Of a stretch of DNA of 64,000 bases, positions 200 to 17,767 are shown piece after piece. This DNA is from a virus (taxonomy: Duplodnaviria; Caudoviricetes). Position numbers and translations under genes: made by a program. The first letter of the stretch is position 1. Each line of letters starts with the position of its first letter. Under the pieces are notes generated by a model. The model had not been told where the DNA came from and made no database searches. It saw nothing but the letters and a program-made list of their open reading frames with translations. The DNA lies in the IMG/VR virus record IMGVR_UViG_3300021963_000022; one strand, written 5' to 3'.

Positions 200-203
200 A
201 ATA

Positions 204-292
204 CACACCTTAGGACCGGTATTAAGTTACCGTAGTGTGGGCCGGCTGCTGGCCTGATTTACGAATTCGCTACTCGAAAATCTAAAGTGAGC
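204..292 (+). ncRNA. Putative structured RNA (multi-stem junction with possible pseudoknot), family unassigned
   Basis: Intergenic and GC-enriched; closing stem 206-213/282-289, hairpins 217-232, 240-254 and 256-282 identified by manual pairing. Confidence 0.45.
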
Positions 293-305
293 TTTTACCA
301 TTTCT

Positions 306-313
306 GATAAATA
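306..313 (+). promoter_or_regulatory. T4-like late promoter motif GATAAATA
   Basis: 7 nt before the ATG at 321; the same motif recurs before other late-type genes. Confidence 0.55.
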
Positions 314-320
314 TATATAT

Positions 321-2365: not shown

Positions 2366-2390
2366 TCGGGTAATATTCCTTGCAAAATAG

Positions 2391-2419
2391 TTGACTTTCT
2401 TGCACTGTGCATGTATACT
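2391..2419 (+). promoter_or_regulatory. sigma70-type promoter
   Basis: TTGACT-17 nt-TATACT upstream of the dsbA-like and polymerase genes. Confidence 0.7.
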
Positions 2420-2441
2420 AACTACTTCACAAGGAGAAACT

Positions 2442-2708
2442 ATGTCAGATTACAACAGAACCTTTAATGGTGAAGCTAAAATCAAACTAACACAATTGGT
2501 CAATGAAGGCATGAGTGTATTGCATGAAATTGACACATTGAATGGTGGATTGAACGACACTATTAAGGCAGTCGCAGAAGAACTTGAAATCAAAGCTTCT
2601 ACACTAAAAAAAGCAATTAAGATTGCACATAAAGCATCATTAGGTCAAACAAACAAAGACCATGATGAACTCAACACTATCTTGGAAACTGTCGGCAAAA
2701 CTCTATGA
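2442..2708 (+). CDS. DsbA/GapR-like dsDNA-binding protein
   Basis: 88-aa helical protein (IKAVAEELEIKASTLKKAIKIAHK); SD AAGGAG before ATG 2442; adjacent to the polymerase. Confidence 0.6.
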   Translation: MSDYNRTFNGEAKIKLTQLVNEGMSVLHEIDTLNGGLNDTIKAVAEELEIKASTLKKAIKIAHKASLGQTNKDHDELNTILETVGKTL

Positions 2709-5422
2709 GTTATGTGGATGCAATACACGCAAAAGATGAGGACCGTATCTACGTTGTAGAGAGGGATAATAACGGCAAGCGTCAGTACAAAGAGTATCCC
2801 ACTAACTATGTATTGTATTATCCCGATCACAAAGGTAAGCAACGCAGTATCTATGGCGATCCTGTAACTAGATTTTCAACTAGGAAAAGAACTGAGTTTG
2901 AAAAAGAAAGACGAATTCACGGTAACAAGAAACTCTTTGAGAGTGATGTTAACGTTGTATTCCGCTGTCTTTCAGAAAACTATTTAGGTGTCGATGCTCC
3001 TAAACTTCATACTTGCTTCTTTGACATTGAGGTAGACTTTGATCCTGTCAAAGGATTCAGTCCAACAGCAGACCCATTTAATCCAGTTACAGCTATCAGT
3101 TGTTACTTAGATTGGCTTGACCAATGTATTACATTAGTTATTGCTCCTAAGCATATGACTAGTGAAACAGCCAATGATATTGTAAATCAATTTGAGAATA
3201 CAATGCTTTTCAATTCAGAGAAGGAAATGTTTGATGTTTTCTTTCAACTGATTGAAGATGCTGATGTATTAACTGGCTGGAACTCAGAGGGATATGATAT
3301 TCCCTATATGGTCAATCGTGTTACTAGAGTGATGAGTAAAGATGATACACGCAAATTCTGTTTGCTAGGTCAACTTCCTAAACCTCGTAAGTATGAACGA
3401 TTCGGTAAAGAAGAAACTACATATGATTTAGTAGGTCGTATTCACATGGACTATTTGCAGTTGTATAAGAAATACAACTATGAATCTCGTCACAGTTACA
3501 AACTTGACTCTATCGGTGAGATGGAAGTAGGTGAGAACAAAACTGTATATGAAGGTACTCTTGACCAATTGTATAACAAAGACTTTAAAAAGTTTATTGA
3601 ATACAATAGACAAGATACTATGTTGTTGGTGAAGATTCACAACAAACTTAAGTTTTTAGAATTAGCTAATCAACTTGCACATGAAAACACAGTACTGCTT
3701 CCAACAGTTATGGGTTCGGTAGCAATGATTGAGATGGCTATTTTTAATGAAGCCCATGAACGTGGGGTTGTTGTTCCAGATAAAAAACGAAAGGTTGAAA
3801 ATGCAGAAGATGTCCAACAGGCAGCAGGTGCCTTTGTTGCTACGCCCAAGAAGGGAATGCACGAATGGGTCGGAGCAGTCGATATTAACTCACTCTATCC
3901 CTCGGTTATTCGTGCCCTCAACATGGCAGGCGAAACCATTATTGCTCAAGTCAGACAAACAATAACTGACCAATACATGAGAGACAAAGGATCACGTCTT
4001 GCCAGCGAAAAGAAATATTTCAAAGAAGGTGATGATGCTGTAACTGGTAGTATCTTGTGGGAGAATTTGTTTGGTGCATTAGAGTACACAGCAATTATGA
4101 ACCAAGAACGTGGTACTATGCTTACAGTAGACTATGAAGATGGTCGTTCAGTGGAAATGTCGGCAGCAGAAATCTGGAAAATGATTTTTGATAGTCACAA
4201 TCCCTGGATGTTATCAGCTAATGGTACAATTTTTACTTATGAAAAAGAAGGCATCGTACCTGGTCTACTAACACGTTGGTACACAGAACGTAAAGTAATT
4301 CAAAAACAAGCTAAAGAAGCATATGGTACAGATATGTATGATTATTATGACAAGCGACAACTTGTTCGTAAAATTTTACTTAACTCAGCATATGGTGCAC
4401 TATTGAATGAACATTGCAGATTCTATGACAAGCGTATTGGTCAAAGTGTTACATTGAGTGGTCGTCAGATTGTTAAGCATATGATGAGTATAATCAATGA
4501 AACAGTTGAAGGTGTGTATTCACACGAAGGAGAAGCAATTGTATACGGTGATACTGATTCTTGCTATTTTACTGCGTTTCCTACGCTTAAAAAGCAAATC
4601 GAAAACAAAGAACTAGACTGGAACAAAGAGACTTGTATCGGATTATACGATGGTATCGCTGACCAAGCTAATGAAAGTTTCCCAGCATTTATGGAGAAAG
4701 CATTTCATGCTCCAAGAAAGAATGGAGCAATCATTAAAGCAGGTCGTGAACTAATCGGTGATCGTGCTATCTTTATTACTAAAAAGCGTTATGCTATCAA
4801 TATCTTTGATAAAGAAGGTAAGCGTAAAGATAAAGATGGTCAAGGTGGTGATATCAAAGCAATGGGTCTTGACTTGAAACGTGCGGACACACCTAAGTAT
4901 GTACAAGAATTCTTAATGAATGTATTGTCAATGGTACTACAGCAAGGTAAAGGTCGTGAGGAAGTTATTACAGTAGTTAAAGACTTTAAACGAAATCTAT
5001 CAGCACAAGATAGTTGGACTAAAGGTTCACCCAAAGGTGTTAACAAACTTACGATGTATGGTGAGCTGGAAGCTCACAGTAAAACTGGTAGAGCTAACAT
5101 GCCCGGTCACGTTCGTGCGGCTCTTAACTGGAATTATTTGCGTAGAGTTTACAACGATAACTACAGTCAGAAGATTGTTGATGGCATGAAAATTGTTGTT
5201 TGTAAACTAAAACAGAATCCAATGGGATTTACTAGCGTAGCTTACCCGACGGATGAACTTAGATTACCCAAATGGTTTTGTGAATTACCGTTTGATGATA
5301 ATGCAATGGAACAAACATTAGTTGATGAGAAGATTGACAACTTATTGGGTGTATTAGATTGGGATTTGCGTTCTAATACTGATACAAAATCTACATTTGA
5401 TGAATTATTTACATTTGGTTAA
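2705..5422 (+). CDS. Family B DNA polymerase (gp43-like) with 3'-5' exonuclease
   Basis: DINSLYPS, KILLNSAYG, YGDTDS, KKRY; exonuclease motifs FDIEV, GWNSEGYD, YNRQD. Confidence 0.97.
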   Translation: MSYVDAIHAKDEDRIYVVERDNNGKRQYKEYPTNYVLYYPDHKGKQRSIYGDPVTRFSTRKRTEFEKERRIHGNKKLFESDVNVVFRCLSENYLGVDAPKLHTCFFDIEVDFDPVKGFSPTADPFNPVTAISCYLDWLDQCITLVIAPKHMTSETANDIVNQFENTMLFNSEKEMFDVFFQLIEDADVLTGWNSEGYDIPYMVNRVTRVMSKDDTRKFCLLGQLPKPRKYERFGKEETTYDLVGRIHMDYLQLYKKYNYESRHSYKLDSIGEMEVGENKTVYEGTLDQLYNKDFKKFIEYNRQDTMLLVKIHNKLKFLELANQLAHENTVLLPTVMGSVAMIEMAIFNEAHERGVVVPDKKRKVENAEDVQQAAGAFVATPKKGMHEWVGAVDINSLYPSVIRALNMAGETIIAQVRQTITDQYMRDKGSRLASEKKYFKEGDDAVTGSILWENLFGALEYTAIMNQERGTMLTVDYEDGRSVEMSAAEIWKMIFDSHNPWMLSANGTIFTYEKEGIVPGLLTRWYTERKVIQKQAKEAYGTDMYDYYDKRQLVRKILLNSAYGALLNEHCRFYDKRIGQSVTLSGRQIVKHMMSIINETVEGVYSHEGEAIVYGDTDSCYFTAFPTLKKQIENKELDWNKETCIGLYDGIADQANESFPAFMEKAFHAPRKNGAIIKAGRELIGDRAIFITKKRYAINIFDKEGKRKDKDGQGGDIKAMGLDLKRADTPKYVQEFLMNVLSMVLQQGKGREEVITVVKDFKRNLSAQDSWTKGSPKGVNKLTMYGELEAHSKTGRANMPGHVRAALNWNYLRRVYNDNYSQKIVDGMKIVVCKLKQNPMGFTSVAYPTDELRLPKWFCELPFDDNAMEQTLVDEKIDNLLGVLDWDLRSNTDTKSTFDELFTFG

Positions 5423-5429
5423 ACTGGTA

Positions 5430-5458
5430 TTGACATTCGTAATAAAACCCATCATAAT
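5430..5458 (+). promoter_or_regulatory. sigma70-type promoter
   Basis: TTGACA-17 nt-CATAAT. Confidence 0.65.
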
Positions 5459-5506
5459 GACACATATTGCTATATTAAATATTAGCACAAATTACAAAGG
5501 AAAAAC

Positions 5507-6241
5507 ATGAAAGATATTTTAAAAGAGTTAGTATTATACACAAAAAAATTAGGTTTCATTAACCTAATCAAAATTACAGGTACAGATAAAGATGTTACTA
5601 TCAATGCTATTGCTGATAACAAAACAGTTATTGTTAATGGTTTGATGAAGCAACCTGTACCGGGCTTTGATGGTGTATTTGGTATGCCTAACTTAGGCAA
5701 ACTTGATACTATCTTAAACTTAGATGTATATGATGAACTAAGTAACATTACAGTACAACCTAAGATTGAAGATGACGGTACTAGTGTTCCCGGTACTATT
5801 CACTTTGAAACAGTAAACAAAGACTTTGTTAACGATTATCGTTTGATGAGTAAGTCAGTTGTATCAGAGCAAATCAAGTCAGTAATTTTCAATGGTACAG
5901 TTTGGAATGTTGAATTCGAACCAACTATTGTAGGTATTCAACGTTTACGCCGTCAGTCTCAAGCTAATAGCGAAGAAGAATCTTTTATGACAAAAACTGA
6001 GAACGGTGATCTAAAGATTTACTTTGGTGATCATAGTACACACTCGGGTAACTTTATTTTTCAACATTCAGTTAATGGAACACTAAATAAAAGTTGGAGG
6101 TGGCCTATTAAAGAATTCTTAGCAATCGTAGATTTACCCGGCGATAAGAAGATTCGTTTTAGTGACCAAGGTGCGTGTGAGATTGTTATCGACAATGGCA
6201 CAAGCGTATATCAATATCTTTTCCCAGCACAAACAAAATGA
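5507..6241 (+). CDS. Probable sliding clamp (gp45-like)
   Basis: 244 aa, two-lobed alpha/beta pattern, directly after the polymerase; called mainly from size and context. Confidence 0.6.
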   Translation: MKDILKELVLYTKKLGFINLIKITGTDKDVTINAIADNKTVIVNGLMKQPVPGFDGVFGMPNLGKLDTILNLDVYDELSNITVQPKIEDDGTSVPGTIHFETVNKDFVNDYRLMSKSVVSEQIKSVIFNGTVWNVEFEPTIVGIQRLRRQSQANSEEESFMTKTENGDLKIYFGDHSTHSGNFIFQHSVNGTLNKSWRWPIKEFLAIVDLPGDKKIRFSDQGACEIVIDNGTSVYQYLFPAQTK

Positions 6242-6972
6242 CAATTAAAAGTATTTCAGGCGGAGTGGGTGTAGTAGTTAACGGCGGAACACCCGCATAT
6301 CCCGTCATAGACATGAAAGAAGTTAGCGCCGGTCTAGTTAGATATAATACGGATCACCTAGAAGTTTTTGATGGTACTGCTTGGAAGCCTCTTGGTTGGT
6401 CTGATTGTAACGTTGATTTGTCTAATCCTGCTATGGATTTACTATCCTGGGTACGTGAGAAGATGATTGAAGAACAATCAAAGGATACTACTAGTGTATT
6501 GTCTCCTGAAGCTATTGACTTACTAACATGGGTCAAGGCTAAAAGACATGAAGAAGAAAATGGTGTAAGTTTAATTACACCTGAGATGGAAGAACTGTTT
6601 GCTTGGGTTAGACTTAAGAAACAGGAAGATGATATCTTAGCACGTAAACGTCAGGAAGAAGAAGCGCAGAAAAGAAAACAAGCTGATTTGCGTAGACTTA
6701 TGGAAGAAGAAGCTAGAAAATCAATGTTGATTAAACAGGAAATTAAACCCGTACCTGTTCTATTTCCAGAGCCTGTACAACAGCCTGTACAACCTGTACA
6801 AGAGTTTGAGCCTGAGGTGATTGAAGAAGTAGTATCTGAAGTAGTTGAAGAAGTTATTCCAGAAACAACTACAAAAGCAACACCCAAAACAAAGAAAAAG
6901 AAAAAGATTGAACCAGTAGTGGTTGTAGTTGAGAAACCAAAAGAGATTCCACCAGAAGACAGGATGTGGTAA
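6238..6972 (+). CDS. Hypothetical protein with three helical W-V-R/K repeats and an acidic/Pro-rich tail; paralog of the next gene
   Basis: LLSWVREK, LLTWVKAK, LFAWVRLK; shared RYN...EVFDG..W segment. Confidence 0.7.
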   Translation: MTIKSISGGVGVVVNGGTPAYPVIDMKEVSAGLVRYNTDHLEVFDGTAWKPLGWSDCNVDLSNPAMDLLSWVREKMIEEQSKDTTSVLSPEAIDLLTWVKAKRHEEENGVSLITPEMEELFAWVRLKKQEDDILARKRQEEEAQKRKQADLRRLMEEEARKSMLIKQEIKPVPVLFPEPVQQPVQPVQEFEPEVIEEVVSEVVEEVIPETTTKATPKTKKKKKIEPVVVVVEKPKEIPPEDRMW

Positions 6973-7340
6973 TGATAAAAAGTATTCAGACTAATGGTCC
7001 GTTCTTAAGTGTAGCAGGTGGCTATCCATCTGCTACATATATCAGTAATGGTAGTGGACCAGGTGTAGGTAATATGCGATATAACCCCAACAGTCAAAAC
7101 ATTGAAGTATTTGATGGCAGTATTTGGGTTATTATGCAATCTAGTAATGCTTATATTAGTTTAGACCATGAAGCAGTTATATTGTTAGAATGGGTACGTA
7201 AGAAGCGTGATGAGGATCTTGAAGTAGAACGATTAGCAGAAACTAATTCAACTATCAAGGACCTTGTAAATCAAGTTAAAGAAAAACAAGAACAAATTCG
7301 TATTGTTCAAGCACTCGTAAAAGAAGAAGTAAAAGTTTAA
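6972..7340 (+). CDS. Hypothetical protein, paralog of 6238..6972
   Basis: MRYNPNSQNIEVFDGSIW...LLEWVRKK. Confidence 0.7.
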   Translation: MIKSIQTNGPFLSVAGGYPSATYISNGSGPGVGNMRYNPNSQNIEVFDGSIWVIMQSSNAYISLDHEAVILLEWVRKKRDEDLEVERLAETNSTIKDLVNQVKEKQEQIRIVQALVKEEVKV

Positions 7341-8896
7341 TGGAACAAGTAAATCTATCAAATCATCACAAAGATGATTGGGCGTTATTCCTACCAGCAG
7401 TCAGTAGCTTCTATATCTCTGGCTTAGGTAAGCAACGTAAAGGTGAAGAGTATTTTGAACAATCTCGTATACCTGCAGGCTTTAACAATGATGTAGAAAA
7501 ACTAAACTTTCTTAATAGCAAAGAAGGTCTCTATTATTATAAATGGGGCTTGTACTCTGCTGGTCATGCTAACTTAGATACTACTAAAGACGATCCTAGT
7601 GAATCAATCATTAGAGAACGTGAAGCTGGTACATTCATGTTGGGCGACTCTGGTGGATTTCAAATTCTTAAAGGTCAATGGCCGGCTGATTGGAAAGATC
7701 CTAACTGTCCTAAAGCTTTAGAAAAACGTCAAATTGTTTTGAAGTGGATGGATACATACATGGACTATGGTATGTGTTTAGATGTACCTAGTCAATCATT
7801 CTTAAACAAACCTGCTATCAAACTTCATGGCATTCATAACATCGAAGAAGCTATTACTGCTACACATATTAATAACGAATACTTTATTAACAATCGTTCG
7901 GGTAAGTGTAAGTTCTTAAATGTATTGCAAGGTACTACACATACTGAAAGTGATTCATGGTACAACGAAATGAAAAAGTATTGTGATCCAAACATCTATC
8001 CAGACAATCACTTTAATGGTTGGGCGTTTGGTGGCCAGAATAAAATTGATGTTGACTTGATGTTACGTAGATTTGTTGATATTGTATATGACGGATTGTT
8101 ACAAGAAGGTAAACATGATTTGGTTCACTGTTTGGGTGTATCAATCTTAGAGTATGCTGTATTGTTTACTGATATTCAAAAAGCTATTCGTAAGTATCAT
8201 AACCCAAGTTTGAAGATTACGTTTGATTGTGCAAGCCCATTCTTTAGTGCGGCCAAAGGACTTGCTTACTTTAATACAAACATTGAACATAATCAGAAGT
8301 GGTCATATCAAATGGAAAAGACTGCTGAGAAGAAGTCTTATGCTACTGATAATCGGACGTTTATTGATGCTGTTTTGGCTGATGGTATCCATAAACAGTT
8401 TACAAATAGTCCAGTAACTGATAAACTACTTATTAGAGATTTGTGTTATAGAGGGATAGGATTCTTAGGACAACATAACAAAGAAACAAAAACTAGCTGG
8501 GATACACTTAGCTATACATTGTTACAAAGTCATAATGTCTATACTCATATCAATGCTGTGCAAGAAGCTAATCGTAGATATGAGCAAGGAATTCATCCAG
8601 CAATGGTTAGAAATAAAAATACAGGTTTAACCTTTGGTCAGTTGATTGATAGTATTTTTGCATGTAAAACTAAACAAGAAAGTTTAGATATCATTACACA
8701 GTATGAACTATTCTGGACGCAAATGCAATCAGGTAGTCAAGGATTTAGTGGTAAGAAAACTATCAATTCACGTACACAATATAAAGAACTTTTTACAGAA
8801 GAAGAATCAGATTCTGAACTATATTTGTTAGAAGATATTAAACCTAACAAATATTCTTCTAATGAAAAGTTTAACGAACTATTTACACTTGAATAA
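7340..8896 (+). CDS. dpdA: TGT-fold DNA 7-deazaguanine transglycosylase (DpdA-like)
   Basis: DSGGFQ, MCLDV, VLQG, GWAFGG, HCLG, TFDCAS and SHN occur in TGT order; no CxCxxC zinc motif seen. Confidence 0.8.
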   Translation: MEQVNLSNHHKDDWALFLPAVSSFYISGLGKQRKGEEYFEQSRIPAGFNNDVEKLNFLNSKEGLYYYKWGLYSAGHANLDTTKDDPSESIIREREAGTFMLGDSGGFQILKGQWPADWKDPNCPKALEKRQIVLKWMDTYMDYGMCLDVPSQSFLNKPAIKLHGIHNIEEAITATHINNEYFINNRSGKCKFLNVLQGTTHTESDSWYNEMKKYCDPNIYPDNHFNGWAFGGQNKIDVDLMLRRFVDIVYDGLLQEGKHDLVHCLGVSILEYAVLFTDIQKAIRKYHNPSLKITFDCASPFFSAAKGLAYFNTNIEHNQKWSYQMEKTAEKKSYATDNRTFIDAVLADGIHKQFTNSPVTDKLLIRDLCYRGIGFLGQHNKETKTSWDTLSYTLLQSHNVYTHINAVQEANRRYEQGIHPAMVRNKNTGLTFGQLIDSIFACKTKQESLDIITQYELFWTQMQSGSQGFSGKKTINSRTQYKELFTEEESDSELYLLEDIKPNKYSSNEKFNELFTLE

Positions 8897-8905
8897 GGAG
8901 ATAAC

Positions 8906-9118
8906 ATGCCATATCGTAGTAGAATCAGTATATTAAAAGAATCACATCGTTTGATTGATGAACAGATTATAGTAATGGAAGCTAACAACGCTGATCCGTT
9001 GAAGATTTCAGAAATGAAAAAACAAAGACTAATTTACAAAGACGAGATCCGAAGAATGGAACGTATTCAATGGGAACATGATCATGATACTGTCGACCTC
9101 AGCGATGATGACTATTAA
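8906..9118 (+). CDS. DUF465/YdcH-like small coiled-coil protein
   Basis: LKESHRLIDEQI...MKKQRLIYKDEI pattern. Confidence 0.65.
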   Translation: MPYRSRISILKESHRLIDEQIIVMEANNADPLKISEMKKQRLIYKDEIRRMERIQWEHDHDTVDLSDDDY

Positions 9119-9125
9119 ATCAACT

Positions 9126-9311
9126 ATGACTGCCGAAACCGAAGAATCTACTATTTCATTTAGAGGTGGTTCTGATGAAATGCTACGTATAGCAAAAGAT
9201 GGGTTTTATGTACGTGGAGTTCGGGTAAATCAGGATGACAAAGAAGCTGAAATAGTGTATAATACATTTCATCAGTGGTTAACATGGGCCTCACTTAACA
9301 GGAAATATTAA
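9126..9311 (+). CDS. Hypothetical protein
   Basis: ORF track; start refined to ATG 9126. Confidence 0.5.
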   Translation: MTAETEESTISFRGGSDEMLRIAKDGFYVRGVRVNQDDKEAEIVYNTFHQWLTWASLNRKY

Positions 9312-9763
9312 TGGAACAACATATTCAAGCAATGAATGAAAAACGTGTACGCATTAAGCATTATGCTAAACGTATGATTTTTGTAACATTTCAAAAAGAG
9401 GGTATTCATATGTACCCGGCAGCGGCAACAGATCCAGCACTCGCAACAGGTGATGAATATGATGTTAGCTTTTTAGGAACTCCACATCGTCACATCTTTC
9501 ATTTTAGTGTGGCGATTGAAGTATTTCACAATGACAGGGATATTGAATTCATTCAATTTAAACGCTGGTTAGAAAATCTCTACAAAGGCGGAACACTTGA
9601 ATTGAATTACAAGAGTTGTGAAATGATTAGTGATGACCTCTATGAGCAAATCGCTACTCGCTATCCCGATCGTAACATTGAGATTACTGTCAGTGAAGAC
9701 GGTGAGAACGGTGCAACGATTTATTATAATACAAGCAAACCTTATCAACAACTCGCTATTTAA
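9311..9763 (+). CDS. QueD-like T-fold protein (DpdL-like)
   Basis: LGTPHRHIF (LxxxHRHxF), DRDIEF, SCEM, SEDGENG. Confidence 0.7.
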   Translation: MEQHIQAMNEKRVRIKHYAKRMIFVTFQKEGIHMYPAAATDPALATGDEYDVSFLGTPHRHIFHFSVAIEVFHNDRDIEFIQFKRWLENLYKGGTLELNYKSCEMISDDLYEQIATRYPDRNIEITVSEDGENGATIYYNTSKPYQQLAI

Positions 9764-9774
9764 AGGAAAATACA

Positions 9775-9981
9775 ATGGCAAAACATACTTTTCAACCTAA
9801 TCCTCGTGTACGTCAAATTTTCGAGGATCTAGAAAAGTACTTGGCATTCTGCCAAGATTATGGCTACAAATATGACGAATCCTCATTATACGATATGCGT
9901 AGTTACGTATATCGTCAACACACTAAACAGTTATCTGGAAAGTGGGCTAAAGATTCATGGGCTGATGCAATCGTCCGATGA
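9775..9981 (+). CDS. Hypothetical protein
   Basis: ORF with SD AAGGA; overlaps the glycosyltransferase start. Confidence 0.6.
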   Translation: MAKHTFQPNPRVRQIFEDLEKYLAFCQDYGYKYDESSLYDMRSYVYRQHTKQLSGKWAKDSWADAIVR

Positions 9982-11156
9982 GAAAATTATTCTATATGGG
10001 TCTCGAACCTTACAAAGCACGTTACACTCTACAATTACAAGAGTGGAATGAACGTGTATTTAAACGTAGAGGTATTAACTATGTTATCGTGCCTGGCGAA
10101 ACATTAAGTGATGACCAAGCTATTGTTACAGGTCAAGTACTAGACGCACATGGACGTACATACTTTGGTATGAGTCAACTAATGAATCTAGTACGTATGA
10201 TGAAAGCAGGAGAGTGTAGTGACCAAGATATTATCTATTTTGAAGATATGTTTCAACCAGGTATTGAGAGTTTGCCGTATATACTTAAGCAAGTACCTAC
10301 TAATCTTCGTCCTCGTATATTTGTCCGTTGTCTTGCTCAGTCAATCGATCCGGATGATTTCGTACATGTATGGGGAATGAGTGAATTCATGGGTCTCTAT
10401 GAGAAGATGGTAGATAGTTTTGTTGATGGCGTACTAGCTACTAACGAAGAAATGATTATGCATATGAAGATTGCAGGCTGGAAGTCACCTCTATATAACA
10501 TTAGTGGTCTTGCATTCGGTAAGAATGAGGTGCGTAGTCGTGTATTAGGACCATTGAAACCCTTTGAAGAACGTACTATGCGTGTAGCATTTAGTGCAAG
10601 ATGGGATCAAGAAAAACAACCTGATTTCTATATGGACTTAATTGAAGCGTTTTATTCTAGGTCAAATAAAAAAATTGAATTCTGTGTATTCAGTGGTAGT
10701 AAGTTAAAAAGCAATAACGAAAGTTATATGGAACGTACTCGCAAACTACAGAGCGAGGGTAAACTTGTCATCTATGAAGACTTGGAAAAGAATGATTACT
10801 ATGACCTATTAAACGATACTAGAGTATTGTTTAACTGTGCTTTACAAGACTGGGTAAGTAATACAGTTAGCGAAGCAGACACATTAGGTTGTAATGTATT
10901 ATATCCGGCATATCGTAGTTTCCCGGAAACGTTTGCTAATGATAATACACGACTGTATGTTCCTTGGAGTATTGATGATGCTATGTCTAAATTGCAAAAT
11001 TTGTTAATGGCACCGCACAATTTTCAAGGTCGTATTAGTGATTATACTGATAAAACTATTGACCGTATCTGTGATATCATGGAAGGCAATGGAGAACAAT
11101 ATTTACGCATGGGTAGTGACTATCGTAAATACACAAGAGAAACAAAATACTCATAA
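9978..11156 (+). CDS. GT-B fold glycosyltransferase
   Basis: AFSARWDQEKQP and NCALQDWVSNTVSEADTLG (variant of the GT4 donor-binding E-x7-E region). Confidence 0.75.
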   Translation: MRKLFYMGLEPYKARYTLQLQEWNERVFKRRGINYVIVPGETLSDDQAIVTGQVLDAHGRTYFGMSQLMNLVRMMKAGECSDQDIIYFEDMFQPGIESLPYILKQVPTNLRPRIFVRCLAQSIDPDDFVHVWGMSEFMGLYEKMVDSFVDGVLATNEEMIMHMKIAGWKSPLYNISGLAFGKNEVRSRVLGPLKPFEERTMRVAFSARWDQEKQPDFYMDLIEAFYSRSNKKIEFCVFSGSKLKSNNESYMERTRKLQSEGKLVIYEDLEKNDYYDLLNDTRVLFNCALQDWVSNTVSEADTLGCNVLYPAYRSFPETFANDNTRLYVPWSIDDAMSKLQNLLMAPHNFQGRISDYTDKTIDRICDIMEGNGEQYLRMGSDYRKYTRETKYS

Positions 11157-11171
11157 CATAAAGGAAATAAC

Positions 11172-11366
11172 ATGAGCGCACATAACGATATTAACACACA
11201 TTTAGAAGCATACTTGACCGAACATGAAAAGTTTGATAAAGGTAATGCGGCTGCAGGAACACGTGCCCGTAAAGCATTAGCTGAGATGGCTAAGGCAATT
11301 AAAGCACGCCGTAATGAAATTACAGCAGAAAAAGCCGCACGTGCAGAAGCAAAAGCTAAGGCTTAA
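11172..11366 (+). CDS. Histone H1-like (Hc1-type) small basic protein
   Basis: KGNAAAGTRARKAL motif. Confidence 0.7.
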   Translation: MSAHNDINTHLEAYLTEHEKFDKGNAAAGTRARKALAEMAKAIKARRNEITAEKAARAEAKAKA

Positions 11367-11368
11367 TC

Positions 11369-11599
11369 ATGGCAACTCGCAAGAAAATTCAACTTGAAGA
11401 AGTTAGTTCATTGCCAGACTCAATACAAGTAGGTAGTCACTTAACTGTGTCTACCTACTCTGATGGTCGTACTGAATTGGAATGGGATTGGGATGCATTA
11501 GTTAAAGAGGTACGTGAAGCCTGCGCTAGTGTTGAACTTGCCAATACAAAGCCCGCAGTTAAAGCTAAATCAAAAAAATCAGTTGCTAAATCAAAGTGA
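11369..11599 (+). CDS. Hypothetical protein
   Basis: ORF track; basic termini. Confidence 0.55.
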   Translation: MATRKKIQLEEVSSLPDSIQVGSHLTVSTYSDGRTELEWDWDALVKEVREACASVELANTKPAVKAKSKKSVAKSK

Positions 11600-11611
11600 T
11601 AAATACTTGTG
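11594..11611 (+). promoter_or_regulatory. Late promoter motif within an 18-bp sequence repeated at 32106-32123
   Basis: AAGTGATAAATACTTGTG is identical at both sites. Confidence 0.6.
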
Positions 11612-11665
11612 TTACACAACGGTAACACAATGTCAAAACAAAACCATCACAAAGGAAGGTTATCT

Positions 11666-12352
11666 ATGAGTTATAATAAAACAAAAACAGATCCAGAGTT
11701 GGGTCAAAAAGTTCATCTACATCTATTAAATATGGGCGTAGAAACGCCAATTGACGATACAATTGATTTAGGTGATCGTAAGGATCGTATTGAAAAGATT
11801 GAAGGTCATTTCAAAGCTATTATGGAAACAATGGGTCTAGACCTAGATGATGATAGTCTTATTGAAACACCTAAACGTGTTGCCAAGATGTATGTAAATG
11901 AAATCTTTTGGGGACTTGATTATGAGGCATTCCCTAAATGTACAACAGTTAACAACAAGATGCAATACAACGAAATGGTTGTAGAGCGTAATGTTAATGT
12001 TCAATCTAACTGCGAACATCACTTTGTAGTGATTGATGGATTGGCTACTGTAGCTTATGTCCCTAAACAAAAAGTATTAGGGCTTAGTAAGATCAACCGT
12101 ATTGTAGAATATTTTAGCAAAAGGCCTCAAATACAAGAGAGGTTAACAGAGCAGATATTTCACACCTTACAGTTCATCCTTGAGACAGAAGATGTTGCAG
12201 TTATGATTGATGCACAACATTATTGTGTAAAATCACGTGGGGTAGAAGATACAGGTAGTAGTACTGTTACTTGTCGCCTAGGTGGAGGCTTTAAAACTGA
12301 TCCAGCGGCAAGACAAGAGTTCTTACAGATTGCTAATAAAGGTTGCAAATGA
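11666..12352 (+). CDS. folE: GTP cyclohydrolase I
   Basis: [38 protein letters not shown]; start after SD GGAAGG. Confidence 0.95.
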
Positions 12353-12540: not shown

Positions 12541-12763
12541 ACAAATGGACTACAATAGTGTGCATCATCAAATCTATATGAGTGGTGTAGAACTTCATAG
12601 TAATTACAATGATGGATACAACCAGTTTGAAATCAAAAAAGATTTACATCGTATTAAATGGTTACTTGATGAGATTATGGCTGACGCACCTACATTTACA
12701 GGTGAAGATGAATTCTTAAAAGAACACGAACAAACCAAGATGTGGAGAACACTTTCAAAATGA
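12527..12763 (+). CDS. Hypothetical protein
   Basis: ORF track; start refined to ATG 12527. Confidence 0.55.
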
Positions 12764-13233
12764 TTTTTAATCACATTAAAGAACTAAAAGCACAAGGTAA
12801 AAAGATTGGCATTACTTTCAGTACATTTGATTTGCTTCACGCAGGTCACGTTGCTATGTTAAGTGAGGCGAAGAATCATTGCGATTATTTAATTTGTGGC
12901 TTGCAAACTGATCCAACCATTGATCGTCCTGATACAAAGAATAAACCCATTCAAAGTATTGTAGAACGACAGATCCAACTTGCGGCTTGTCGCTATGTTG
13001 ATGAGGTAGTTGTATATCAAACTGAACAGGACCTTATTGACCTACTACTTATTCTTCCCTTAGATGTTCGCATTTTGGGTGTAGAATATGCTGAAAAAGA
13101 GTTTACCGGAAGATATGAAGGTGGGGAACGAGGTATTGAACTTGTATTCAATGGTCGTGACCATAGTTTCAGTAGTTCAAGTTTAAGAAAACGGGTAGCT
13201 GATGCCCAGATTATTAACACTCTTAATAAATAA
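12760..13233 (+). CDS. Cytidylyltransferase-family nucleotidyltransferase (TagD/RfaE-like)
   Basis: TFDLLHAGH (HxGH) and RDHSFSSSSLR. Confidence 0.85.
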   Translation: MIFNHIKELKAQGKKIGITFSTFDLLHAGHVAMLSEAKNHCDYLICGLQTDPTIDRPDTKNKPIQSIVERQIQLAACRYVDEVVVYQTEQDLIDLLLILPLDVRILGVEYAEKEFTGRYEGGERGIELVFNGRDHSFSSSSLRKRVADAQIINTLNK

Positions 13234-13308: not shown

Positions 13309-13791
13309 ATGGCAAACAAAAAATTCTTTTCAACAAAAACATACAGACAAATAGGTCCTGTCGCTTATCGTCAATGGCGTGCTGACAGTCATTGTAACTT
13401 AATTCATGGCTACGCTATGAGTTTTCACTTTGAGTTTGAAGCTGATACACTAGATGCCCGCAACTGGGTAACTGACTTCGGTGGACTACGACCTCTCAAA
13501 GACAAACTAGAAGAATGGTTTGACCATACTCTACTAGTCGCACAAGATGACCCAATGCGTGAACATCTATTAGAACTAGGTCGATTGAAGCTAGCAAAGA
13601 TTACAGAAGTAGAACGTACTGGCTGTGAAGGTATTGCTGACTTCTTATACGAATATGTTAATACAATCTTTTTACCTAACTGCGGTAGTGAAGAAGCAAA
13701 GCGTGTATGGTGCTGTAGAGTAGAGGTTCGTGAGACTGATAGCAATATGGCAGGTAGAGGTGGTCATAGAGAAGATGGGGAGTTTGCATAA
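13309..13791 (+). CDS. queD: 6-carboxy-5,6,7,8-tetrahydropterin synthase
   Basis: HCNLIHGY, DFGGL, FDHTLL, TGCEGIA, VEVRET. Confidence 0.9.
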   Translation: MANKKFFSTKTYRQIGPVAYRQWRADSHCNLIHGYAMSFHFEFEADTLDARNWVTDFGGLRPLKDKLEEWFDHTLLVAQDDPMREHLLELGRLKLAKITEVERTGCEGIADFLYEYVNTIFLPNCGSEEAKRVWCCRVEVRETDSNMAGRGGHREDGEFA

Positions 13792-14361: not shown

Positions 14362-15012
14362 ATGTTAGAAACAATTTGCGATACATTAGTTGAAGCATAT
14401 AGACGCAACTGGATTACTAGTCGTGATGGCAATGTAAGTATTCGTCATCACGACCGTGATCACTTTTACATCACTCCTAGTGGTGTCCGTAAGCAGACAA
14501 TGCAACCTGATCAGTTTAAAAAGATTGGCATTGAACAAGGCTACTATGACCAACCTCCTAAACCATACTATTCTTGGAAAGAACTGGCATATACAGACAT
14601 TAGTGAGAAGCTAAAACCTAGCGGAGAAATACCACTGCACTTCGGCTTACAACGAGAAATGGGGCAACACAGTGATGATGTAAGAGTTGTAGTTCATTTA
14701 CACCCTACTTATTGTATTGCGGCAATGCACGCCGGTATTGATTTAAGCACTATTAGCAAAGCGTTTCCAGAATTGAATCGCTACACTAAGGTAGCACCCA
14801 ATGTAGGAGACGTGCCTCCGATTAGTCAAGAGCTTGCAGACCAGTGCCATAAGATGTTACAATTAGACAATAAAGGCAATATTGTTTACGACATTGTAGG
14901 TATCAAAGGACACGGAGTTGTTGCTATAGATACAAGTCCATGGCGTGCTTTTGAACACATTGAACGATTAGAACATATTTGTCAAATCGTATTAGCATCA
15001 AATAAATTTTAA
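14362..15012 (+). CDS. Class II aldolase/adducin family protein
   Basis: SRDGNVS, ITPSG, PSGEIPLH, HLHPTY, GHGV. Confidence 0.88.
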   Translation: MLETICDTLVEAYRRNWITSRDGNVSIRHHDRDHFYITPSGVRKQTMQPDQFKKIGIEQGYYDQPPKPYYSWKELAYTDISEKLKPSGEIPLHFGLQREMGQHSDDVRVVVHLHPTYCIAAMHAGIDLSTISKAFPELNRYTKVAPNVGDVPPISQELADQCHKMLQLDNKGNIVYDIVGIKGHGVVAIDTSPWRAFEHIERLEHICQIVLASNKF

Positions 15013-15022
15013 GGAGAAAACT

Positions 15023-15712
15023 ATGTTTGAAACAACTTATGAAAATGGAACGTCATATCGTTCCGCAAGCGAAATCAATTCAGCAATGGGTCGTGTCTAT
15101 GGACATATGAGTCTTGCTGTTATTGTATCAATGTTTGTTAGTTACTTTGTAGGCACTAGTCCAGAGTTATTGGCATTCTTTTTTACAGGCTGGATTAAAT
15201 GGATTGTAATATTATCACCACTTGCGGCTATCTTTGGTGTTGCTATGGTACTAGCCAATAACCCAAGTAAAAGTGTAGCACAACTATGCTTACATGGTTT
15301 TGCGGCATTAATGGGATTGAGCTTTGCTACAATCTTTGCTGTATTCACTATGGGTAGTATTGTGTCAGCGTTTATGGGAGCCTCGATACTTTTTGGTGTA
15401 ATGAGTGGATATGGCTACTTTACCAAACAGAGTTTAGACAATGTTGGTAAGTTTATGTTTGTCGGCCTAATTGCTATCATTATTGCTAGTATTGTTAATA
15501 TCTTTATTGGTAGTACAGTTATGCAAATGGTTATCAGTGCATTAGCTATTATTATCTTTTTAGGACTAACTGCTTATGACACACAAAAGATCCGTGAAGA
15601 ACTTAGTATGGAAACTAGTGATAGTGCAGAAGTGCGAGGTGCATTAACATTATATATGGACTTCATTAACTTGTTTATTAACCTATTACAACTGTTTGGT
15701 GATAGAAAATAA
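15023..15712 (+). CDS. Bax inhibitor-1/YccA family membrane protein
   Basis: Multiple transmembrane helices; TAYDTQKI and ALTLYMDFINLF. Confidence 0.88.
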   Translation: MFETTYENGTSYRSASEINSAMGRVYGHMSLAVIVSMFVSYFVGTSPELLAFFFTGWIKWIVILSPLAAIFGVAMVLANNPSKSVAQLCLHGFAALMGLSFATIFAVFTMGSIVSAFMGASILFGVMSGYGYFTKQSLDNVGKFMFVGLIAIIIASIVNIFIGSTVMQMVISALAIIIFLGLTAYDTQKIREELSMETSDSAEVRGALTLYMDFINLFINLLQLFGDRK

Positions 15713-15917: not shown

Positions 15918-16124
15918 ATGAACAAAAAAATCAAAGAACTAGCAGAACAATGCGGTTTTAGACCAGGTGATAGCATATACGATAGAAATCAATCATTTGA
16001 TATTGAGAAGTTTGCAGAACTTCTAATCAGAGATTGTGCAAAGCAAGTTAATCACATTTACAAACAAGGTGGCGGCACATGGGGTGAAGTCATTCTTAAA
16101 ACTTACAATATAAAAATCAAATGA
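15918..16124 (+). CDS. Hypothetical protein, KFAxLIxxC paralog family
   Basis: DIEKFAELLIRDC. Confidence 0.6.
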   Translation: MNKKIKELAEQCGFRPGDSIYDRNQSFDIEKFAELLIRDCAKQVNHIYKQGGGTWGEVILKTYNIKIK

Positions 16125-16969
16125 GTCATTTAAAAGTAGCAGAATTATTTTATAGCATTCAAGGTGAAGGTAGATACATGGGTGTACCTTCAGTATTTCT
16201 CAGAACATTTGGCTGTAACTTCAAGTGTGCTGGATTTGGTATGCCTAAAGGTGAACTAAGTCGTGAGGTAGAAGACATTGCCGCACGTTCACATTACTAT
16301 GATGATTATAAGAAACTTCCTTTAGTTTCTACAGGTTGTGACAGTTATGCAAGTTGGGATCCTAGATTTAAACATCTTAGTCCTGTACTAACAACAGATA
16401 GTATTGTAGATAGCATTATGGATATGATTCCGCACAAACGTTGGATGGATGAGCATCTTGTTATTACAGGCGGTGAACCTTTATTAGGTTGGCAACGTGC
16501 TTATCCTGACTTGCTTTCACATGAAAAGATGAGGAGTCTTAAAGAGATTACATTTGAAACAAATGGTACTCAAGAACTAAGCCAAGACTTTTCAATATAT
16601 CTACAACAGTGGAAGATAAACAGAGAAAAAAATGCACTTACCTTTAGTGTAAGTCCTAAACTAAGCATCAGTGGTGAGAAGTGGGAAGAAGCTATTCGCC
16701 CTGAGATTATTCATCAATATGAAAGTGTTGGCTTTGTTTATCTCAAGTTTGTTATTGCTACTAAAGAGGATGCACTTGAAGCTGATGACGCAGTAAAAGA
16801 GTTTCGTAGTAGAGGATTCAGAGGTCCTGTATACTTTATGCCATGCGGTGGTGTAGAGTCTGTGTACAACTTGAATGCAAAGAATGTAGCAATTGAAGCA
16901 ATGAATCGTGGTTATCGTTACAGTGATAGACTACAAGTACCTTTATTTAAGAATGAGTGGGGTACATGA
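16121..16969 (+). CDS. queE: 7-carboxy-7-deazaguanine synthase (radical SAM)
   Basis: ELFYSIQGEG, FLRTFGCNFKC...GCDS, ITGGEP, ETNGT, SVSPK. Confidence 0.9.
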   Translation: MSHLKVAELFYSIQGEGRYMGVPSVFLRTFGCNFKCAGFGMPKGELSREVEDIAARSHYYDDYKKLPLVSTGCDSYASWDPRFKHLSPVLTTDSIVDSIMDMIPHKRWMDEHLVITGGEPLLGWQRAYPDLLSHEKMRSLKEITFETNGTQELSQDFSIYLQQWKINREKNALTFSVSPKLSISGEKWEEAIRPEIIHQYESVGFVYLKFVIATKEDALEADDAVKEFRSRGFRGPVYFMPCGGVESVYNLNAKNVAIEAMNRGYRYSDRLQVPLFKNEWGT

Positions 16970-17553: not shown

Positions 17554-17767
17554 TAAACTAAAAGAACTGGTAGCGGAATGCTACAATCCTTATTCAGACT
17601 TTGATTATGAAAAGTTTGCTAATCTAATTATTGAAGATGTACTCAGTATTATGGGTGACCCTAAAAACTATAACAGATGCACATATACTAATTTTGATTT
17701 AAATACCGCTTTGTGTATATCAACAGAACTATCTGATAAAATTAAAAAACTTTATGAGAACGTATGA
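17546..17767 (+). CDS. Hypothetical protein, KFAxLI paralog family
   Basis: DYEKFANLIIEDV. Confidence 0.55.
   Translation: MNDKLKELVAECYNPYSDFDYEKFANLIIEDVLSIMGDPKNYNRCTYTNFDLNTALCISTELSDKIKKLYENV

Follow-up and report, generated by a model that had tools for sequence, protein, structure and literature searches.

Why would a phage with genes for 7-deazaguanine DNA modification keep a second QueD-like enzyme directly coupled to a glycosyltransferase? This question is raised by a DNA stretch of 64,000 nucleotides (the window) from an uncultured giant phage of the Caudoviricetes (IMG/VR record IMGVR_UViG_3300021963_000022). A preliminary description, based on the sequence alone, had pointed to a 150-aa QueD-like protein with the motif LxxxHRHxF, followed by a 68-aa ORF whose stop overlaps the start of a GT-B glycosyltransferase. 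This observation proved to be correct, as the three ORFs exist as described. The ORF at 9311-9763 (+, 150 aa) contains LGTPHRHIF, DRDIEF, SCEM and EDGENG, and carries Leu55 where QueD has its catalytic Cys. The ORF at 9775-9981 (+, 68 aa) ends in a TGA that overlaps the ATG of the ORF at 9978-11156 (+, ATGA at 9978-9981), which encodes a 392-aa protein, hereafter GT1. A megablast search of the region against phage records found no match. A sigma-70-like promoter candidate (ATGACA-17-TATAAT, 11 of 12) occurs at 9235-9263 (+), about 48 nt upstream of the start of the 150-aa ORF, and is the best match in 7000-12000, although the total number of such sites is no higher than in shuffled sequences and it can only be taken as a lead. 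No terminator-like site was detected on the + strand between 9311 and 11156.

The first step was to establish the identity of the 150-aa protein. No PTPS hit was obtained in either Pfam or NCBIfam (no PF01242 hit even at E values up to 1), which indicates that its QueD-like character could not be shown by a simple domain scan, and a small hhalign comparison with phage QueD profiles gave only 51% probability over the C-terminal 44 columns, too weak to be used. The relationship was revealed instead by structure prediction. The AF2 model (pLDDT 89.2) is a T-fold whose best PDB matches are the PTPS of P. horikoshii (2dj6, Z 11.8, rmsd 2.1 A over 97 residues) and E. coli QueD (3qn0, Z 11.1; also solved as 4ntk), with T-fold proteins filling the top 23 rows and a Foldseek match to E. 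coli QueD at E 1.8e-4. In this regard, Hutinet et al. (2023, NAR 51:9214, PMC10516641) had defined the DpdL family by the motif LxxxHRHxF in place of the CxxxHGH of QueD, and proposed it as the decarboxylase of 7-carboxy-7-deazaguanine (CDG), so that the facts cited in the preliminary description were accurate. Our protein is a clear member of this family: it is 55% identical to DpdL of Acidovorax phage ACP17 (ASD50405, E 1.5e-48), 62% to the PA5oct homologue and 34-35% to DpdL of Cellulophaga phage phiST (gp040, E 1e-15), and it hits phrog_17812 at E 7.6e-36. Within the motif (L55-GTP-H59-R60-H61-I-F63), L55, H59, H61 and F63 are invariant in nine phage homologues and in 25 diverse homologues. 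Across the nine phage homologues the invariant residues are H33, H59, H61, H73 (nearly invariant in a wider alignment), S102-C103-E104 and E129, and the zinc-binding His triad occupies the same positions as in QueD/PTPS. A clade-specific N-terminal helix of about 20 aa, conserved in most of the clade, is an additional trait of this DpdL. The decarboxylase activity of the family remains a proposal, since it has never been demonstrated for any member.

A similar situation was found for GT1, which scores below the Pfam gathering threshold for Glycos_transf_1 (17.4 versus 26.4 bits), although some family members pass it (27.7 bits for the member P0160). Its AF2 model (pLDDT 94.4) is nevertheless a clear GT-B fold with two Rossmann-like domains, which matches solved GT4-type enzymes over 314-347 aligned residues at Z 24-27, including sucrose-phosphate synthase (6kih, Z 26.9), BshA (6n1x, Z 25.7) and PglH (6eji, Z 24.8). 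A profile search of PDB sequences finds mainly GT4 enzymes, including all the hits with E below 0.1. The canonical GT4 diphosphate-binding residues R208 and K213 and the motif D/E-x7-E are invariant or nearly so across 98 diverse members. In GT1 this motif is D291-x7-E299, which aligns with the Y-E...L-E-A of GlgM, the first Glu being Asp. Altogether, GT1 is predicted to be a GT4-like, probably retaining, NDP-sugar glycosyltransferase with its donor-binding residues intact. With respect to the retaining GT4 enzymes (BshA, MshA, PglH/WlaC, GlgM, sucrose-phosphate synthase), sequence identity is only 8-13%, and the N-terminal acceptor domain has its own set of invariant residues (R15, Q67, D90, D127, E142). 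The fold searches place GT1 within the general GT4/GT5/GT20 group and do not single out any acceptor class. Phage DNA glycosyltransferases, which also show a GT-B fold and hypermodify DNA bases with UDP-sugars, score lower than many small-molecule GT4 enzymes (Z 21.3 for T4 AGT, 1y6f; Z 18.9 for the 5-hydroxycytosine glycosyltransferase of phage HY126, 9iqz, PMC13326640), and the T4 alpha- and beta-glucosyltransferases and the HY126 enzyme act on hydroxylated pyrimidines. The 68-aa basic protein encoded between DpdL and GT1, translationally coupled to GT1 through the ATGA overlap, is a real gene, kept between them in 74 of 80 and 34 of 75 related loci, but it gave no hit in Pfam, PHROGs, a tblastn search of phages or the ESM Atlas, and no homologue was found outside the clade.

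The surroundings of the pair match the context of the published DpdL proteins, with FolE, QueD, QueE and a DpdA but without QueC. FolE (GTP cyclohydrolase I) is encoded at 11609-12352 (+; PF01227, E 5e-62), a separate QueD/PTPS-type CPH4 synthase at 13309-13791 (+; PF01242, E 1.4e-15; TIGR03367, E 1.2e-8), which alignment to E. coli QueD shows to be an atypical C-x3-HGY variant, and the radical-SAM CDG synthase QueE at 16121-16969 (+), assigned through the equivalog models TIGR03365, TIGR03963 and TIGR04322 at E 1e-13 to 1e-14, all below their cut-offs. As this QueD lacks two of the three zinc histidines and DpdL lacks the Cys, we considered whether both proteins could complement each other as a heteromer, which seems unlikely because QueD homologues of this type (counted regardless of their HGY residues) occur in 125 phage records, many of which are not among the DpdL phages and carry QueC. 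A long DpdA-type (TGT-like) DNA transglycosylase of 518 aa is found at 7340-8896 (+). Its motifs DSGGxQ (103-108), M145..D148, HxLGVG (263-266) and D296 correspond to the catalytic motifs of TGT (D103-SGG-x-Q108, D148, L265-G266 and D296 being invariant), and the only PDB sequence hits of its profile, aligned on these motifs, are TGT, although with a weak E value (0.41). This protein is 34% identical to PA5oct QCG76197 and weakly linked to ACP17 ASD50403 (E 0.005), which in turn matches X1 WEM34307 (annotated as queuine tRNA-ribosyltransferase) and ZZ01 UTS52034. The homologues of ACP17, X1 and ZZ01 match the DpdA2 of Vibrio phages, with the ACP17 member about 34% identical over 250 aa to those of VH7D and nt-1. 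Its C-terminal tail NELFTLE resembles the DELFTFG of PolB. A second GT-B-like glycosyltransferase, GT2, occurs at 17754-19088 (+; Glycos_transf_1, E 4.8e-5), also with a PolB-like tail (SLFTFA) present in 33 of 35 homologues, and it is 38% identical to BUCT-ZZ01 UTS52035, which lies between FolE and DpdA. A GalE-like NAD-dependent sugar-nucleotide 4-epimerase follows at 19085-19930 (+; PF01370, E 2.4e-30; TIGR01179 galE, E 3.5e-47). Two optional members of the cluster are a small nucleotidyltransferase at 12742-13233 (+; RfaE-domain-II/TagD-like; PF01467, E 7.7e-12; TIGR02199, E 6e-23), present in 42 of 80 loci, and a class II aldolase/epimerase-like protein at 14362-15012 (+; PF00596, E 4.9e-28), present in only 9 of 80. 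A phmmer search of the window detected no QueC-like, phosphoribosyltransferase, MazG or DpdA3 genes. Looking at complete relatives in place of the window's own whole genome, no QueC above cut-off was found in two CheckV-complete relatives (352 and 524 kb), nor in PA5oct, ACP17 or ZZ01.

Is the coupling between DpdL and GT1 a peculiarity of this phage? GT1 founds a large and almost purely viral family (at least 8000 clusters at 90% identity and 794 at 50%), and it lies within 3 kb of DpdL in 151 of 155 metagenomic loci (78 of 80 and 73 of 75 in two sets of IMG/VR loci). Most of these loci come from one broad clade of related freshwater phages, and the number of truly independent lineages is consequently about ten, not 155. 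The linkage holds for four of five GT1 relatives at 30-39% identity, which have DpdL within 1.5 kb, and at 50% identity 6 of 7 GT1 clusters have DpdL within 3 kb. Among cultured phages it was found in BUCT-ZZ01, ACP17, Xanthomonas phage X1 and BUDD, PA5oct-like phages, Sinorhizobium phage Phosso and BCSR5. Paride is also a GT1-positive cultured phage. The genes abut or overlap in ZZ01, ACP17, Phosso and the locus L092, whereas gene order differs between lineages (DpdA-GT1-DpdL versus DpdA-DpdL-GT1), which argues against frozen synteny. GT1 usually sits with a long DpdA-type transglycosylase and a GalE-like epimerase, the latter carried by 53 of 75 other loci, in most of them directly after GT1 or DpdL, and an epimerase-domain gene also follows DpdL in PA5oct. 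On the other hand, five DpdL phages examined in full, with working positive controls, have neither GT1 nor the long DpdA. One of them is phiST, whose DNA contains plain dDG (PMC10516641) and whose DpdL is accompanied by DpdA3, a kinase and MazG. GT1-negative DpdL phages also include RHph_I1_18 and Vibrio D479. DpdL thus occurs without GT1 in several lineages, but GT1 almost never occurs without DpdL.

The interpretation offered in the preliminary description was partly supported by these data. The functional coupling of the glycosyltransferase to DpdL, which it had claimed, is strongly supported by a linkage conserved across very distant phages. Of its two alternatives for the role of the pair, competition for CDG is disfavoured by the asymmetric distribution, which fits GT1 working downstream of DpdL and not in parallel with it, whereas an undescribed reaction on a deazapurine (or pterin) intermediate remains possible and, for a deazapurine, is our preferred reading. 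We propose, with moderate confidence, that FolE, QueD and QueE make CDG, where the pathway would stop in the absence of QueC, that DpdL, a QueD-derived T-fold enzyme, decarboxylates CDG to 7-deazaguanine (DG), and that GT1 takes a UDP-hexose, with a 4-epimer supplied by the linked GalE-like enzyme, and attaches it to the DpdL product. The long DpdA would put the base into DNA and GT2, where present, would extend or add sugar on the DNA. Our analysis establishes the identity and predicted fold of DpdL, GT1 and DpdA, the intact donor site of GT1, the deep conservation of the DpdL-GT1-DpdA(-GalE) linkage, the absence of QueC in the genomes examined and the asymmetric distribution of both genes. 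By contrast, the decarboxylation of CDG by DpdL, the use of DG or dDG as acceptor by GT1, the glycosylated atom and the stage at which GT1 acts (free base or nucleotide, or DNA) are all inferred, and no computation could fix either the acceptor atom or the sugar. A C-glycoside at C7 is the most DNA-compatible option, whereas N2 has a natural-product precedent. We lean slightly to a soluble substrate, because GT1 never carries the PolB-like tail that DpdA and GT2 carry (0 of 161).

Several data agree with this proposal. Hutinet et al. could not obtain dDG in E. coli from ACP17 dpdL plus dpdA and suggested that other enzymes are needed (PMC10516641), and the ACP17 GT1 gene sits between those two genes, if our inference of which gene was called dpdA is right. 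PA5oct DNA, of unknown chemistry, resists restriction enzymes whose sites contain G (PMC12191111), and the DNA of the PA5oct group is known to carry an unidentified modified G. A hydroxymethyl-pyrimidine acceptor is unlikely, as no thymidylate-synthase-family gene is shared by the GT1 phages: one ThyA-family gene, scoring well above the thymidylate-synthase cut-off, occurs in some of them and none in ACP17 or ZZ01. A precedent is HuiG of the huimycin pathway (PMC7439116; bioRxiv 10.64898/2026.04.15.718813), a GT4-type enzyme encoded beside FolE, QueD and QueE homologues that N-glycosylates the 2-amino group of a preQ0-derived 7-deazapurine. It belongs to a bacterial secondary-metabolite pathway that includes QueC, and its product is a free small molecule. 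The tubercidin pathway, also without QueC, removes the C7 carboxyl of CDG after the action of a phosphoribosyltransferase, and phosphoribosyltransferase genes sit in the PA5oct and BUCT-ZZ01 clusters as well, although its decarboxylase is of the UbiD type, not a T-fold protein, and no DNA is involved. Some issues, however, weigh against our proposal. There is no chemical evidence for a sugar on DNA in any of these phages, DG has no hydroxyl or amine at C7, so that the reaction has no enzymatic precedent in DNA, and known C-glycosyltransferases are inverting enzymes of the glycosyltransferase family GT1 (a family name unrelated to our label), not GT4. Moreover, GT1 proteins are acidic (median pI 5.8) and lack the PolB-like tail, which does not indicate action on DNA, but if GT1 acts on the free base, DpdA would have to accept a bulky glycosylated base.

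Among the alternatives, all of them unlikely in our view, the one that survives best is that GT1 has nothing to do with the DNA base and glycosylates a host envelope component, a phage protein or another metabolite, being close to DpdL only because both are early or replication-module genes. GT4 enzymes most often build glycans and small-molecule glycosides, GT1 is acidic and tailless, and the cluster lies in the replication module next to PolB in several lineages. Nevertheless, the adjacency survives down to 21-30% GT1 identity across unrelated phage families, with changed gene order and overlapping or abutting reading frames, and GT1 was found next to deazaguanine genes in every informative context but was absent from all five DpdL phages that use a different DpdA. 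Almost equally unlikely is that GT1 and DpdL are alternative branches from CDG, with GT1 forming a glycosyl ester or other conjugate of CDG or dCDG. CDG does offer a carboxylate, whereas DG offers no obvious acceptor, both enzymes would be co-expressed, and QueC is absent. In such a case, however, GT1 should sometimes occur without DpdL in FolE-QueD-QueE phages, and only one short-contig lineage lacks DpdL nearby. Glycosyl esters are also labile, which makes them poor as a genome-wide modification. Less likely still is that the pair works on pterins, with DpdL acting as a PTPS-like enzyme on the dihydroneopterin triphosphate made by FolE and GT1 making a pterin glycoside, like the cyanobacterial tetrahydrobiopterin glucosyltransferase. 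DpdL keeps the PTPS/QueD fold and an intact zinc site, FolE is always nearby, and the solved tetrahydrobiopterin alpha-glucosyltransferase (BGluT, 5zer) is among the fold matches of GT1, but at Z 23.6 it ranks only tenth, roughly level with the GT4 rows around it and about 3 below the top match. Moreover, DpdL lacks the Cys needed for PTPS/QueD chemistry, the conserved partners QueE and a DNA transglycosylase are deazaguanine-specific, phiST contains dDG with the same DpdL, and no sepiapterin-reductase-type gene is conserved in the clusters examined. Finally, a non-catalytic or regulatory GT1, for example a scaffold for DpdL or DpdA, is very unlikely in spite of its sub-threshold Pfam score and of the accessory protein DpdB needed by bacterial DpdA, given its conserved donor-binding residues and the co-located sugar-nucleotide epimerase.

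7-Deazaguanine modifications are a major way for phages to evade restriction, and none of the eight derivatives known carries a sugar. DNA glycosylation is not known outside pyrimidines, and the papers searched added no exception. What was already known is the DpdL family and its proposed role. What is new is that this unvalidated enzyme comes in two genomic architectures, one with DpdA3 and a kinase, as in phiST, which gives plain dDG, and another with a long, polymerase-tailed DpdA, a dedicated GT4-like glycosyltransferase and usually a GalE-like epimerase, whose product has never been analysed. As a more tentative possibility, the cultured phages PA5oct, ACP17, BUCT-ZZ01, X1 and Phosso, some of them therapy-relevant like the PA5oct group, and a very abundant clade of freshwater giant phages may carry in their DNA a sugar-bearing 7-deazaguanine, with a hexose attached by GT1 to the otherwise bare DG ring, most plausibly as a C7 C-glycoside. 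To our knowledge, and within the papers searched, this would be the first glycosylated purine reported in natural DNA and a new type of reaction for a GT4 enzyme. It would also explain why DpdL plus DpdA alone failed to reconstitute the modification in E. coli, with GT1 as a concrete candidate for the missing enzyme of the DpdL pathway.

The three ORFs of the preliminary description are exactly as it gave them. ORF 9311-9763 encodes a 150-aa protein with the sequences LGTPHRHIF, DRDIEF, SCEM and EDGENG, ORF 9775-9981 encodes a 68-aa protein whose TGA overlaps the ATG of the next gene (ATGA), and ORF 9978-11156 encodes a 392-aa protein, hereafter GT1. The observation is thus confirmed. The window is phage DNA with 35-38% G+C, which carries a family-B DNA polymerase (PolB, 2705-5422), FolE (11609-12352), a QueD/PTPS (13309-13791) and QueE (16121-16969). 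An identical copy of the 392-aa protein sits on a contig of 348 kb, whereas close relatives sit on IMG/VR contigs of 352 and 524 kb that CheckV rates complete, indicating that this is an uncultured giant phage. Other genes of the region include a 64-aa homologue of the chlamydial histone H1-like protein Hc1 (11172-11366; PF07432, E 4e-13) lying directly after GT1 and present in 44 of 80 related loci, and a membrane protein of the Bax1-inhibitor/YccA family (15023-15712; PF01027, E 4e-53) embedded among the deazaguanine genes and present in 16 of 80 related loci. A conserved 244-aa protein (5507-6241; phrog_12062) occurs between PolB and the DpdA-like gene in 71 of 80 loci of this clade, and PA5oct has a 248-aa 'structural protein' at the same position.

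The 150-aa protein is a DpdL. No Pfam PTPS hit was obtained, but it matches phrog_17812 at E 7.6e-36, and a tblastn search found homologues in 28 phage records, among them Acidovorax phage ACP17 (55% identity) and Cellulophaga phage phiST gp040 (35%). The phiST and ACP17 proteins were named DpdL by Hutinet et al. in 2023 (PMC10516641), who defined the family by an LxxxHRHxF motif replacing the CxxxHGH of QueD, found 100% dDG in phiST DNA and proposed DpdL as the CDG decarboxylase. In our protein the motif reads L55-x3-H59-R-H61-x-F63. Across nine phage homologues H33, L55, H59, H61, F63, H73, S102-C103-E104 and E129 are invariant, and all of them but H73, which is nearly invariant, stay so in 25 further diverse homologues. 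An AF2 model built on 25 sequences (pLDDT 89.2) is a T-fold whose best matches are the P. horikoshii PTPS 2dj6 (Z 11.8, rmsd 2.1 A, 97 residues) and the E. coli QueD 3qn0 (Z 11.1), the next rows being all PTPS, QueF, FolB, FolX, urate oxidase or GTP cyclohydrolase. An N-terminal amphipathic helix of about 20 residues is conserved in this clade and absent from the cultured-phage homologues. In Vibrio phage Bakedbeans (gp176, positions 6221-7372 of the locus examined) the DpdL domain is the C-terminal third of an annotated 383-aa protein whose first 260 residues or so have no Pfam hit, which may reflect a fusion or a miscalled start. In this regard, the preliminary description was correct both in identifying a QueD-like protein of this type and in naming DpdL as the proposed CDG decarboxylase.

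The separate QueD of the cluster (13309-13791) also shows some peculiarities. This protein, like those of ACP17, BUCT-ZZ01, phiST and RHph_I1_18, has a C-x3-H-G-Y motif, and in alignment with E. coli QueD it has an aromatic residue where the first zinc His lies, so that two of the three zinc ligands of canonical QueD are missing. Homologues occur in 125 phage records, many of them with QueC.

GT1 is a real GT-B enzyme by its predicted structure, and probably an active one as inferred from sequence conservation. The family is very large, with at least 8000 clusters scored at 90% identity, and with 794 clusters at 50% identity when E values up to 1e-3 are considered (217 up to 1e-30), whereas the ESM Atlas assigns its neighbours almost entirely to viruses. 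An AF2 model from 98 diverse members (pLDDT 94.4, pTM 0.92) matches retaining GT4, GT5 and GT20 enzymes over the full length, such as sucrose-phosphate synthase 6kih (Z 26.9), BshA 6n1x (Z 25.7) and PglH 6eji (Z 24.8), with MshA, PimA and GlgM also among the matches. Further down the same list we find tetrahydrobiopterin glucosyltransferase 5zer (Z 23.6), T4 alpha-glucosyltransferase 1y6f (Z 21.3) and the 5-hydroxycytosine DNA glycosyltransferase of phage HY126, 9iqz (Z 18.9). A family profile hits mainly GT4 enzymes among PDB sequences, including all hits with E below 0.1. In those alignments the invariant R208 and K213 fall on the GT4 diphosphate-binding G-R-x4-K, and D291-x7-E299 falls on the E-x7-E motif, so the donor site is intact. 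The N-terminal acceptor domain has its own invariant set (R15, Q67, D90, D127 and E142, with conserved aromatic residues), although the fold does not reveal the acceptor. One GT1 relative (P0160, positions 1888-3855 of its locus) is 655 aa long and carries about 290 extra C-terminal residues with no Pfam hit.

The neighbouring 518-aa gene (7340-8896) is identified as a DpdA, despite having no Pfam or NCBIfam hit. It is 34% identical to PA5oct QCG76197, which links weakly to ACP17 ASD50403 (E 0.005), which in turn matches X1 WEM34307, annotated as queuine tRNA-ribosyltransferase, and BUCT-ZZ01 UTS52034. The five proteins share DSGGxQ, an Asp of A-M-S-F-D-E type, HxLGVG and a later invariant Asp, and the only PDB sequences found by their profile are TGT, aligned on exactly these motifs, albeit with an E value of only 0.41. 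Moreover, the ACP17 protein is about 34% identical over its first 255 residues to the DpdA2 of Vibrio phages nt-1, VH7D, phi-ST2 and phi-Grn1, and the VH7D DpdA2 was validated experimentally (PMC10516641).

The main result of this work is the linkage of these genes. In 80 IMG/VR loci found with GT1, DpdL is next to it in 78 and the gene of the 68-aa protein (s68) in 74, with a core order PolB - g5507 (the gene of the 244-aa protein) - DpdA - DpdL - s68 - GT1 - (GalE-like) - FolE - QueD - QueE - (GT2), where GT2 is a second glycosyltransferase. In 75 further loci found with a profile of more distant GT1 proteins, DpdL is present in 73, DpdA in 68 and the GalE-like epimerase in 53, and several different orders are observed: DpdA-DpdL-GT1-Epim, DpdA-GT1-DpdL-Epim and QueE-FolE-GT2-DpdA-DpdL-GT1-Epim-QueD. 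Four of five contexts of GT1 relatives at only 30-39% identity have DpdL within 1.5 kb, with QueD, QueE, FolE or DpdA alongside, the exception lying on contigs of 3 and 5.5 kb. Among cultured phages, GT1 and DpdL are adjacent or within a few kb in Synechococcus phage BUCT-ZZ01, Acidovorax ACP17 (in the order 424-aa DpdA, GT1, DpdL, QueE), Xanthomonas X1 and BUDD, the PA5oct group of Pseudomonas giant phages, Sinorhizobium phage Phosso (469 kb) and Burkholderia BCSR5. At 50% identity, 6 of 7 GT1 clusters in our loci have DpdL within 3 kb, to which ACP17, PA5oct with Phosso, and BCSR5 add three more lineages. The genes abut or overlap in ZZ01, ACP17, Phosso and L092, a contig of 7.9 kb. In the latter, a DpdA-like/DpdL/GT1/radical-SAM cluster (76-7866) lies beside RES-domain, resolvase and Rep-like genes, and the module may therefore also travel on non-phage mobile elements.

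Not every DpdL phage follows this pattern. Profile searches over the whole records of five DpdL phages (RHph_I1_18, Ahp1_CNU-2021, Bakedbeans, D479 and phiST) found neither GT1 nor the long DpdA, whereas the same searches found both in PA5oct, ACP17, ZZ01, X1 and a complete metagenomic relative. Instead, phiST and D479 carry DpdA3 beside a nucleotide-kinase-like gene. In Vibrio phage D479 (positions 7004-9100 of its locus) the arrangement of DpdL, a 67-aa gene, a DpdA3-like gene (27% identical to phiST gp042, E 9e-9) and a dNMP kinase mirrors that of phiST and supports a distinct architecture without GT1. DpdL occurs, then, with either of two sets: DpdA3 and a kinase, whose product in phiST is plain dDG, or a long DpdA2-related enzyme plus GT1 and usually a GalE-like epimerase, whose product is a matter of inference. 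DpdL without GT1 is common, but GT1 without DpdL is almost unseen. This asymmetry fits GT1 acting on the DpdL product, and does not fit a competition of GT1 with DpdL for CDG, one of the options advanced in the preliminary description, whose interpretation was consequently supported only in part.

Other observations constrain the possible chemistry. No QueC above cut-off was found in two complete relatives, PA5oct, ACP17 or ZZ01, so phage-encoded synthesis stops at CDG. The GalE-like enzyme (TIGR01179, E 3.5e-47) points to a UDP-hexose or UDP-HexNAc 4-epimer as donor. PA5oct has a short epimerase-domain gene and a phosphoribosyltransferase right after DpdL (7645-8609 of its locus; QCG76201, QCG76202), and ZZ01 has a phosphoribosyltransferase next to QueE (4093-4554 of its locus). 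These phosphoribosyltransferase genes (PF00156) lie inside the deazaguanine clusters, and a nucleotide-level (tubercidin-like) branch may exist in some of these phages, although the window has no such gene. A further clue comes from the C-terminal ends of the proteins. PolB (FDELFTFG, 5390-5422), the DpdA-like protein (FNELFTLE, 8870-8896) and GT2 (SQSLFTFA, 19062-19088) end in a similar acidic-Leu-Phe tail, and the same is true of ACP17 PolB and DpdA (LDDLFE and LDELFE), X1 DpdA, and ZZ01 DpdA and GT2. The motif is present in 101 of 113 PolB, 33 of 35 GT2 and, by the strict pattern, 31 of 143 DpdA proteins, but in 0 of 161 GT1, 1 of 155 DpdL, 0 of 96 epimerase, 0 of 75 QueE and 0 of 111 FolE proteins. 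This suggests tethering of DpdA and GT2, but not GT1, to the sliding clamp, in which case DpdA and GT2 would work on DNA at the fork. GT1, which is acidic (median pI 5.8), would more likely work, like DpdL, on a soluble substrate, although action on DNA is not excluded.

Altogether, we propose that GTP is converted to H2NTP by FolE, to CPH4 by QueD and to CDG by QueE, that CDG is converted to DG by DpdL, that GT1 adds a hexose from a UDP-sugar either before or after insertion of the base into DNA by the long DpdA, and that GT2 optionally adds further sugar on DNA. Since DG has no exocyclic group at C7, the acceptor would have to be either the nucleophilic C7, giving a C-glycoside sitting in the major groove like all other 7-deazaguanine modifications, or a heteroatom such as N2. 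N2 glycosylation of a 7-deazapurine base by a GT4-type enzyme has a precedent in huimycin biosynthesis, and a QueC-less route that decarboxylates CDG has one in tubercidin biosynthesis. Our data establish the family membership of the proteins, the intact donor site of GT1 and the conserved linkage, whereas the reactions themselves, from the decarboxylation by DpdL to the acceptor and sugar used by GT1 and the insertion by DpdA, are all inferred. A hydroxymethyl-pyrimidine acceptor is not shared by these phages, as a thymidylate-synthase-family gene is present once in some GT1 phages, scoring far above the cut-off of that family, and absent from ACP17 and ZZ01.

Full-text literature searches found no report of a glycosylated 7-deazaguanine in DNA, and no mention of a glycosyltransferase in the DpdL paper. 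On the other hand, PA5oct DNA resists restriction enzymes whose sites contain G and is targeted by a modification-dependent nuclease, its modification being chemically undefined (PMC12191111). The 150-aa protein adds to a family that was already known, though still unvalidated. What is new is the DpdL-GT1-long-DpdA(-GalE) module, which differs from the phiST-type 7-deazaguanine DNA modification system in having a long DpdA2-related enzyme and a dedicated glycosyltransferase in place of DpdA3 and a kinase, and which is very widespread in environmental giant phages and present in cultured ones. A sugar-bearing deazaguanine is the most economical reading of this module: that GT1 acts in the pathway on the DpdL product seems to us about as likely as not, and that a glycosylated purine actually resides in the DNA of these phages remains a more tentative possibility.
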